Shown here in pieces: positions 9,763-9,997 of a stretch of 64,000 nucleotides of DNA. A program made the position numbers and the translations under genes. Each line of letters starts with the position of its first letter. The stretch's first letter is position 1. The notes beneath the pieces are model-generated. The model worked only from the letters and a program-made list of their open reading frames with translations, was not told the origin of the DNA and ran no database searches. The DNA is from a virus (taxonomy: Duplodnaviria > Caudoviricetes): IMG/VR virus record IMGVR_UViG_3300025316_001101; one strand, given 5' to 3'.

Positions 9763-9997
9763 AAAGTCCTCGGCCGACAAGAAGCGTAGAGACGCCATTC
9801 CCTTTCGGGAAGTTATAGCCTTCACGCACGGACCCTTTCAGGTTACCGCCGTTCGAAACGCAATTAGATCTCCCCTTCGAGAGATCACCGGATTCAGTCG
9901 AAACTTACCGGCTTGTGCTGTCGCTTGCAGGTCGCCCTGTTTTGCTACCTTAGGACCATCATTGATGTAGTCCCCACTACATTCGGCCGAGGACTTT
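9763..9997 (-). ncRNA. structured ncRNA E1 carrying 23S rRNA H69-H71-like segments
   Basis: Perfect 15-bp terminal stem (9763-9777/9983-9997); GAAA/GAAG-capped hairpins with G-U pairs favouring the minus strand; GGUCCUAAGGUAGC, CGACCUGCA, GGUAAGUUUCGAC, GAAUGGCGU segments. Confidence 0.8.

Follow-up and report, generated by a model that had tools for sequence, protein, structure and literature searches.

A folded RNA with rearranged 23S rRNA sequences in a phage tRNA island, and a phage RNA family resembling the GTPase-associated centre

Large phages appear to carry RNAs that look like pieces of the ribosome of their hosts. In the tRNA island of one freshwater phage there is a 235-nt element, here called E1, in which short exact words from a single stretch of 23S rRNA domain IV are brought together, all in the rRNA sense and mostly out of their native order. 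The resemblance is confirmed as real and beyond chance, and the sequence supports E1 as a folded non-coding RNA of the minus strand. The same island holds a second RNA, a colinear copy of the 23S GTPase-associated centre (GAC), which belongs to a family found in many phages; this family is the firmer and more testable discovery of the two. For E1 itself, the reading that we tentatively prefer, with rather less than even confidence, is that of a lineage-specific, stand-alone RNA imitating the junction of the H69 base, H70, H71 and H67, which would serve as a decoy for a factor that recognises this junction.

The setting of E1

The window (the whole stretch of DNA analysed here, 64,000 nt long) is the reverse strand of bases 163025–227024 of a 259-kb IMG/VR virus record with a GC content of 41%. 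It contains 30–33 tRNA genes, all on the minus strand and with small open reading frames (ORFs) interleaved, and E1 is flanked by the genes for tRNA-Val (11000–11071) and tRNA-Thr (8710–8781). Its closer surroundings are a DUF6934 gene (10016–10450), then E1, then the gene for a 75-aa acidic orphan protein (9520–9747, minus strand), which lies outside the RNA, and then an MscL-like gene; a 70-aa ORF is another neighbour. The 75-aa protein has no Pfam or PHROG match, and its sole relatives, like those of the DUF6934 protein, are 96–100% identical to it. No partner gene for E1 was found nearby or elsewhere in the record, and genes for RRF, for RluD-type enzymes and for L11 were found nowhere in it.

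The window has several other features of its own. Two amber-suppressor tRNAs (anticodon CUA) are encoded at 16289–16362 and 43227–43301, both on the minus strand, although the ORF statistics of the 259-kb record fit the standard code. (A suppressor tRNA likewise occurs near the GAC-type RNA of phage GAP32 and of locus L139.) Two more tRNA-like genes, to which ARAGORN gave no named anticodon, lie at 38689–38763 and 38839–38913 on the minus strand. An HNH endonuclease gene (7556–8377, plus strand) and a class I methyltransferase gene (6789–7478, minus strand) make up one cassette (window 6799–8399), which is missing from a 97.6%-identical relative (L131) and looks like a mobile insertion, independent of E1. 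Two TnpB (OrfB_IS605 / Cas12f-like) genes are in the tRNA island, at 18322–19461 and 47213–48445 on the minus strand; the GAC-type RNA lies about 500 nt upstream of the former. At 35453–35695 each strand has a sub-threshold resemblance to the isrG sRNA model, with 34 and 26 bits where the cut-off is 100, and what has been matched there is probably a spacer that is structured or palindromic. A 742-aa protein encoded at 59072–61300 on the minus strand is made up of eight DUF4379 treble-clef zinc-finger repeats (E 1e-130).

A folded RNA on the minus strand

E1 occupies 9763–9997 on the minus strand, or 243 nt (9759–10001) with the longer version of its closing stem, and no ORF crosses it under translation table 11 or with TAG read as a residue. 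The minus strand of the 251-nt region around it folds with a minimum free energy of -96 kcal/mol (z -4.9; none of 200 shuffles folded as well), while the plus strand of the same region, at -81.9 kcal/mol, is weaker by 14. The ends are joined by a terminal stem, P1, whose 5' strand, AAAGUCCUCGGCCGA (9983–9997), makes a perfect 15 bp with 9763–9777 at a mean pair probability of 0.95; allowing one mismatch, the stem is 19 bp long. Inside, GAAA loops close ACCU/GGGU and UUCCC/GGGAA, and there is also a UUCG loop. The folded RNA with a 15-bp closing stem and GNRA-type hairpins that a preliminary description had proposed is thus upheld by the fold and its z-score.

Where would such an RNA begin and end? 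A promoter-like site, TTGCAA, 16 nt and TG-n-TATATT (10002–10029, minus strand), recognised by its match to the consensus, would put the start of transcription within a few bases of the first base of P1. Directly after P1 comes a U-run, UUUUUAUU (9758–9765, minus strand), a possible terminator tail that the terminator scan could not score, since the "loop" of such a terminator is 205 nt. Then follow GGAG (9754–9757, minus strand) and the ATG of the next gene at 9747. There is no terminator between the upstream gene and E1, so E1 could also be cut from a longer transcript.

Words of 23S rRNA in E1

The minus strand from 9997 to 9763 was compared with the 23S rRNA gene rrlH of Escherichia coli (L002:60-2963). 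Eight exact words of 14, 9, 9, 8, 8, 8, 8 and 7 nt tile rRNA positions 1900–1984 almost without overlap and all in the rRNA sense, each rRNA segment being present essentially once; only 1908–1913, 1935–1941 and two single bases are left uncovered. Along E1, the words are AAUGAUGG (9963–9956; rRNA 1977–1984), GGUCCUAAGGUAGC (9957–9944; 1921–1934), CGACCUGCA (9934–9926; 1958–1966), GGUAAGUU (9909–9902; 1949–1956, exact, or 12/13 if extended to UCGAC), AACGGCGG (9853–9846; 1900–1907), CUAUAAC (9818–9812; 1914–1920), GAAUGGCGU (9800–9792; 1968–1976) and CUUGUCGG (9781–9774; 1942–1949). The order in rRNA numbering is therefore 1977, 1921, 1958, 1949, 1900, 1914, 1968, 1942. All the words that the preliminary description had listed were recovered at the positions it gave, and its view that they come from one short rRNA stretch (here about 85 nt) in a non-native order holds. 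AAUGAUGG is an addition to that list, and it may be due to chance, since it fits E. coli and not the bacterial consensus UAACGA, the only difference between the two in this part of the rRNA.

Shared 7-mers cover 70 of the 85 positions of rRNA 1894–1978, and still 68 if the E. coli-specific word is exchanged for the consensus. In 2000 dinucleotide-preserving shuffles, the control that the preliminary description had called for, the best 85-nt rRNA window had a mean cover of 30.1 nt (sd 5.3, maximum 58), and not one shuffle reached the observed 70-nt clustering. E1 also comes out on top of about 12,900 natural 235-nt windows from both strands of the 259-kb record, with the next unrelated window at 50. 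The 14-mer alone has a chance expectation of about 0.003; CUAUAAC and AAUGAUGG, taken individually, are within chance. The complement of E1 shares no stretch longer than 9 nt with 16S or 23S rRNA, and the likeness is thus sense-only; an antisense action of E1 on rRNA was rejected on the same grounds. Sliding 235-nt windows over both strands of the record gave nothing comparable for 16S rRNA. An apparent third rRNA-like island at 12916–13150 turned out to be just scattered 7–8-mers within an ORF and was put down to chance. An 11-nt word, UCCUUGUCGGG, equal to 23S 1940–1950 (the approach to H71), lies just downstream of the GAC-type RNA (19918–19928, minus strand) and covers part of the rRNA that E1 lacks; with a chance expectation of about 0.5 for such a match over the stretch searched, it may mean nothing.

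Arrangement with respect to domain IV

Following E1 from its 5' end (all on the minus strand), P1 is succeeded by a 7-bp hairpin, AUGUAGU-GGGG-ACUACAU (9962–9982), and then by the best rRNA-like stretch, (AAUGAU)GGUCCUAAGGUAGC, 9 nt and CGACCUGCA (9926–9963), which equals rRNA 1921–1934 and 1958–1966 with a short linker in place of H71 and GAAAUUC; CAGG-GCGA-CCUG in this stretch can form a GNRA-capped hairpin. Next is an arm, GCCGG...CCGGU holding AGU-UUCG-ACU (9887–9912; pair probabilities 0.97 and 0.84), in which GGUAAGUU, the loop sequence of H71, is paired differently, so that the H71 helix is not kept around it. An 8-bp hairpin, GAUCUCUC-GAAG-GGGAGAUC (9867–9886; pair probability 1.00), separates this arm from AACGGCGG and a GAAA-capped H69-like stump that ends in GGUCC(GU) (9828–9853) and reproduces the lower four or five pairs of H69, but not its loop. 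CUAUAAC, the hairpin UUCCC-GAAA-GGGAA and GAAUGGCGU follow (9792–9818), and the ACGC after GAAUGGCGU can pair with GCGU, resembling H67. In the 3' strand of P1 (9763–9777), the inner UCGG, which together with the preceding CUUG (9774–9781) equals rRNA 1942–1949, pairs with CCGA as in the base of H71, giving an H71 stem minus its loop. Three rRNA helices are thus rebuilt locally: the lower part of H69, the lower four pairs of H71 and the H67-like GCGU/ACGC. In the predicted fold, the rRNA-like bases are built into the structure and not displayed on it, with a mean unpaired probability of 0.38 against 0.36 for the rest of E1, that is, no more exposed.

The scrambled order that had been claimed holds for the element overall, but part of it can also be read colinearly: positions 9–77 of E1 align with rRNA 1905–1969 at a local alignment score of 43.5, against a maximum of 37.5 in 300 shuffles. 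The colinear reading runs from CGGCC (in P1) through the extra 7-bp hairpin, which takes the position of the H69 arm, to GGUCCUAAGGUAGC, nine unrelated bases standing for 1935–1957, and CGACCUGCA. A second, weaker pass (E1 145–212) follows rRNA 1900–1999 loosely and is not significant alone, and no significant internal duplication links the two halves of E1. Because neither the native order of the rRNA nor a simple circular permutation of its junction accounts for how the modules are arranged, E1 is fairly called a "mosaic", and there is no evident sign of a faithful copy in three dimensions.

The label "intersubunit bridge / RRF site" finds no support. The H69 loop (1912–1918 in a hairpin context) is absent from E1, as is GAAAUUC (1935–1941), which holds the MazF-mt6/mt3 cleavage site and U1939, and the H71 helix is not kept. 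E1 has no H69 hairpin with a 7-nt loop on a 6-bp stem; CUAUAAC lies elsewhere, outside any hairpin loop. As for the I-CeuI half-site that had been pointed out, the match GGTCCTAAGGTAGC, presumably half of that site, is indeed there, but it amounts to just 14 of 26 bp and has no visible role at the DNA level. A tetraloop-receptor reading of CCUAAG was also dropped, since by eye its partner UAUGG is absent and there is only AAUGG.

A second look-alike and its family

The sole match to the large-subunit (LSU) rRNA model in the whole record lies 10 kb upstream of E1, at window positions 19963–20106 (model positions 1085–1152, 36 bits, E 2e-7). The RNA to which it belongs (19951–20134, minus strand), in the same tRNA island, is colinear with 23S 1021–1111, comprising the top of H42, H43 and H44 (the GTPase-associated centre, where L11 binds), with an inserted arm of 64 nt; the loops of H43 and H44 are kept base for base. 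A scan of viral contigs for the H43 hairpin gave 17 loci, one of them a true 23S gene. The GAC-type loci (L138/L139 and L141–L155; for example, L148:5232-5500) are on phage contigs of 10–372 kb, and those from IMG/VR represent about ten distinct element sequences. The core is also present, unannotated, in the cultured jumbo phages GAP32 (a Cronobacter phage, ~289.5 kb; L155:19985-20265), CBB, BF, pf16 and 4_4572 and in the cultured phage Pd_22F; the cultured phages with such an RNA are phages of Cronobacter, Erwinia, Serratia, Pseudomonas and Aeromonas.

All of these RNAs share one design. A short closing stem leads into about 34 nt identical to H43 and its flanks and then into a structured arm of 64–203 nt (with a longer one in a member for which no 3' core was located), after which come GGCGUAAUAGCACAC, the H44 loop, the other strand of the closing stem and, usually, a U-run or a terminator hairpin. 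The core, GGAUGUUGGCUUAGAAGCAGCCAUCAU...GGCGUAAUAGCACAC (here at 19963–20106), is thus enclosed by closing-stem strands that covary between members, as does the base of the arm. The elements directly adjoin tRNA genes within the tRNA arrays of large phages. No Rfam family covers them, and full-text literature searches gave no description of rRNA look-alike RNAs in phages. A GAC-type RNA is likely to bind ribosomal protein L11. The family evidence means that phages demonstrably copy an rRNA centre into a stand-alone RNA, and that this phage has done so at least once.

How does E1 compare? Like the GAC-type RNAs, it stands alone in a phage tRNA island, has a terminal closing stem followed by a U-run or terminator, and joins unrelated, stably capped arms to stretches of exact identity with a functional centre of 23S rRNA that is universally conserved. 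On the other hand, the GAC-type RNAs follow the rRNA colinearly, with both functional loops intact, and belong to a family with covarying stems that is spread over many phages, whereas E1 is permuted, lacks the functional H69 loop, and is restricted to one lineage. It is not a member of that family, having no significant similarity to the 12 members with which it was compared.

Relatives of E1

Independent contigs from several freshwater metagenome assemblies, reached through the downstream protein, carry the same E1, which is known only from freshwater metagenomes and in copies that are 98–100% identical. In one group of contigs E1 is 100% identical; in a second group, 97.6% identical overall, it differs at three positions, a divergence of 1.3% against 2.4% in the flanks that is not a statistically significant difference. 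One change (A>G at 9905) turns an A-U pair in the arm 9887–9912 into G.U, another (G>A at 9875) turns the hairpin loop GAAG into GAAA, and the third turns G.U into A-U in the consensus fold. Read on the plus strand, either stem change would give one of the two variants a C-A mismatch. The three changes fit the consensus fold on the minus strand only, which is weak evidence, and the only comparative evidence, for that strand.

No diverged copy of E1 was found by pattern scans, blastn or searches with the flanking proteins. The c-f pair of its blocks had no match in viral contigs; in metagenomes it found two true 23S genes without H71 and one AT-rich, reduced rRNA-like contig, and in species genomes a single 552-nt rRNA scrap, none of them a homologue. 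Scanning with the h-c junction pattern gave two matches, both chance, and with the g-d pair more than 120 chance matches, none alignable to E1. There was no blastn match among GenBank phages. In phages with a GAC-type RNA, GGTCCTAAGGTAGC with one or two mismatches was absent from all 17 other records, the GGUCCUAAGGUAGC block was absent from all 15 (14 from IMG/VR and GAP32), and a k-mer scan of the loci reached a cover of at most 34 of 92 nt.

Some of the contigs met in these searches are peculiar in themselves. Two metagenomic 23S genes (L136:2541-2570 and L137:4091-4118), otherwise normal, lack H71 between GGUAGCGA and UUCCGACCUGCA, owing either to natural variation or to an error of assembly. 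The AT-rich contig L135 (Ga0114972_10075446; reverse strand 676–745, 33% GC) has a 25-nt exact copy of 23S 1910–1934, followed by a 12-nt linker, CGACCUGCA and CUGUCU, and is probably a piece of a reduced, colinear LSU rRNA of organellar origin and no relative of E1.

Known classes of element

Could E1 belong to a class that is already known? The search with Rfam 15 (4227 models, including 6S, Y RNA, tmRNA, RNase P, GOLLD, ROOL and HEARO) matched no family to E1 at E≤10 or at the gathering threshold. With this library, a genuine group I intron and a tmRNA were recognised elsewhere, both in phage tRNA islands that carry a GAC-type RNA (L148:2334-2589, 72 bits, and L154:1661-1968, 114 bits, respectively). 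A true rRNA fragment (RF02541) was rejected because there is no LSU match over 9400–10400 at E≤10 and the order of the blocks is permuted. The group I intron core model (RF00028), which gives 72 bits for the genuine intron in L148, has no match in E1 at E≤10, and E1 sits between the stop codon at 10016–10018 and the start codon at 9747; being intergenic, it has no exons to join. A retron msr-msd would share the flanking inverted repeats (a1/a2) that E1 has in its 15–19-bp terminal repeat, but there is no reverse transcriptase downstream, where the neighbours are the 75-aa orphan, the 70-aa ORF and the MscL-like gene. A miniature inverted-repeat transposable element was rejected since E1 is single-copy in 259 kb and turns up in the viral, metagenome and genome collections only as the syntenic copy, and an omega RNA of TnpB or IscB since neither of the two TnpB genes, the nearest ones, abuts E1. 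Nor is E1 an evident ribosomal-protein leader, the downstream gene being the acidic orphan and there being no L11 gene in the record.

Leaders of this type (L1, L10, L20, S8, S15 and others) are nevertheless like E1 in being non-ribosomal RNAs that copy a protein-binding piece of rRNA. They differ in that they precede the gene of the protein that they bind and usually copy shape more than sequence, whereas the gene after E1 is the acidic orphan, and none for a ribosomal protein was found. Decoy RNAs are known from the conflict between phages and hosts, such as RNA anti-CRISPRs that copy crRNA repeats and pseudo-ToxI repeats, and phage tRNAs replace host tRNAs that have been cleaved. Such decoys resemble what is proposed here for E1, a phage-encoded RNA that imitates an RNA of the host or its defences and thereby diverts a protein, and none that imitates rRNA was described within the literature searched. 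The mitochondria of Chlamydomonas and of apicomplexans have fragmented and scrambled rRNA genes, in which rRNA pieces are likewise out of their native order; these pieces, however, are tens to hundreds of nucleotides long, each colinear, and reassemble into a working ribosome, whereas E1 has pieces of 7–14 nt within one 235-nt molecule, in a phage without other rRNA parts.

What might E1 do?

In the reading that we tentatively prefer, E1 would be a lineage-specific instance of this copying of rRNA centres: a small RNA gene in the dispersed tRNA island of a jumbo phage from freshwater, with a transcript that either starts at a promoter of its own or is cut from a longer one, and with ends presumably defined and protected by the 15–19-bp terminal stem and the U-run. 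Five or six arms, capped by GAAA (twice), UUCG, GAAG/GAAA, GGGG and possibly GCGA, would hold a core of sequences identical to a universally conserved junction of 23S domain IV, namely the H69 base, H70, the base and loop sequence of H71, and the 3' strand of H67. By presenting this junction off the ribosome, E1 would be a competitor of 23S rRNA, whether nascent or mature, for a factor that reads it. Candidate partners are enzymes of modification or assembly that work on naked domain IV, such as one of RlmI type at C1962, and toxins or factors directed at the ribosome. E1 keeps C1962 with its surroundings, the bases of H69 and H71 and the H67 strand, and has lost the tip of H69 and the segment with U1939 and the MazF site. 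What is kept and what is lost speak against RRF, release factors, RluD/RlmH and those MazF toxins that are known to cut H70 (with the H69 loop missing, a role as the site of RRF, release factors or RluD is unsupported) and leave enzymes or assembly factors that act on naked domain IV, or some other toxin.

In favour of mimicry are the identity beyond chance, which is unique in the genome, sense-only and includes each segment once, the strong fold of the minus strand with the apparent fit of the sequence changes, the promoter-like site and U-run at the ends of the stem and, by analogy, the GAC-type precedent in the same genome. Exact runs of 14, 9, 9 and 8 nt beside unrelated linkers argue for selection and not for the decay of a captured fragment. 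Counting against it are the lack of a diverged homologue, the order unlike that of rRNA, the missing H69 loop and 1935–1941, the H71 helix that is not kept, blocks that are no more exposed than the rest, the lack of a partner gene, and the absence of GGUCCUAAGGUAGC from the other phages with GAC-type RNAs. Nearly as probably, E1 is a functional structured RNA in which the rRNA words were left over from captured and rearranged 23S fragments; its present role, for example that of a stable RNA or of an element for processing or termination, would then be independent of mimicry. In favour of such an exapted relic are the scrambled order, the upper part of H69 and the H71 helix that are not reproduced, the burial of most blocks in E1's own pairings and its restriction to one lineage, and the terminal stem and U-run could simply terminate the upstream gene. 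However, a 14-nt run and several of 8–9 nt are hard to keep unselected next to non-rRNA linkers, there is no trace of wider rRNA homology or of internal duplication, and the same island holds a member of a bona fide family of rRNA-domain mimics.

It is considerably less probable that E1 acts in cis, as a 5' untranslated region that controls the 75-aa gene and the MscL-like gene through binding of a protein or ligand. The ATG at 9747 does follow the end of E1 by 16 nt, which include GGAG, and rRNA mimicry by leaders is an established mechanism (Meyer 2018, cited in PMC11109978); but the ribosome-binding site is outside the structure and not sequestered in any predicted fold, the protein is an acidic orphan of neither ribosomal nor RNA-binding type, and a U-run after the stem favours termination ahead of the gene. 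Alternatively, the blocks, which are 3' or 5' strands of four helices (H67, H68/H69, H71, H64) and all in the sense orientation, could pair with their partner strands in nascent 23S rRNA and so disturb or redirect assembly of the host 50S subunit. This is improbable, since each such intermolecular helix would have only 4–8 bp, no extended complementarity to rRNA was found, and the very stable fold of E1 itself occupies the bases in question. More improbable still is an origin as mobile DNA, whether E1 is a miniature inverted-repeat element or what remains of a 23S gene's group I intron or homing site: the 19-bp terminal inverted repeats, the HNH endonuclease cassette 1.4 kb away (an indel between relatives) and the match of GGTCCTAAGGTAGC to half of an I-CeuI site would suit it, but E1 is single-copy in 259 kb and absent elsewhere, has neither an intron match at E≤10 nor exons, and varies independently of the cassette. 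Least probable of all is a chance resemblance in a GC-rich, hairpin-forming spacer. Words of 7–8 nt are individually expected, and AAUGAUGG fits only the E. coli variant, but the shuffles, the rank of E1 among natural windows and the rarity of the 14-mer have already refuted chance at the level tested.

Significance

E1 is new to the databases searched and is best regarded as a variant form of RNA molecular mimicry whose function is putative. If the mimicry reading is right, it would show that rRNA look-alikes need not be colinear copies, and a pull-down with E1 would provide a handle on whichever factor reads the domain IV junction off the ribosome. The more general idea, that jumbo phages make stand-alone mimics of 23S centres (the widespread H43/H44 copy and the E1 of this lineage) that act as decoys, is held here as a possibility that we would still bet against, but with the GAC-type family in cultured phages it can be tested at the bench now. 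Should it be true, the decoys would divert ribosomal proteins, factors for translation or assembly, or toxins directed at the ribosome, and they would form an RNA-level arm of ribosome takeover or counter-defence beside the phage tRNAs. Phage tRNA islands are read as tools for taking over translation and for escaping from defences that cut tRNA. Look-alikes of rRNA centres, if they are made, would be a new class of players in this takeover of translation and escape from defence.
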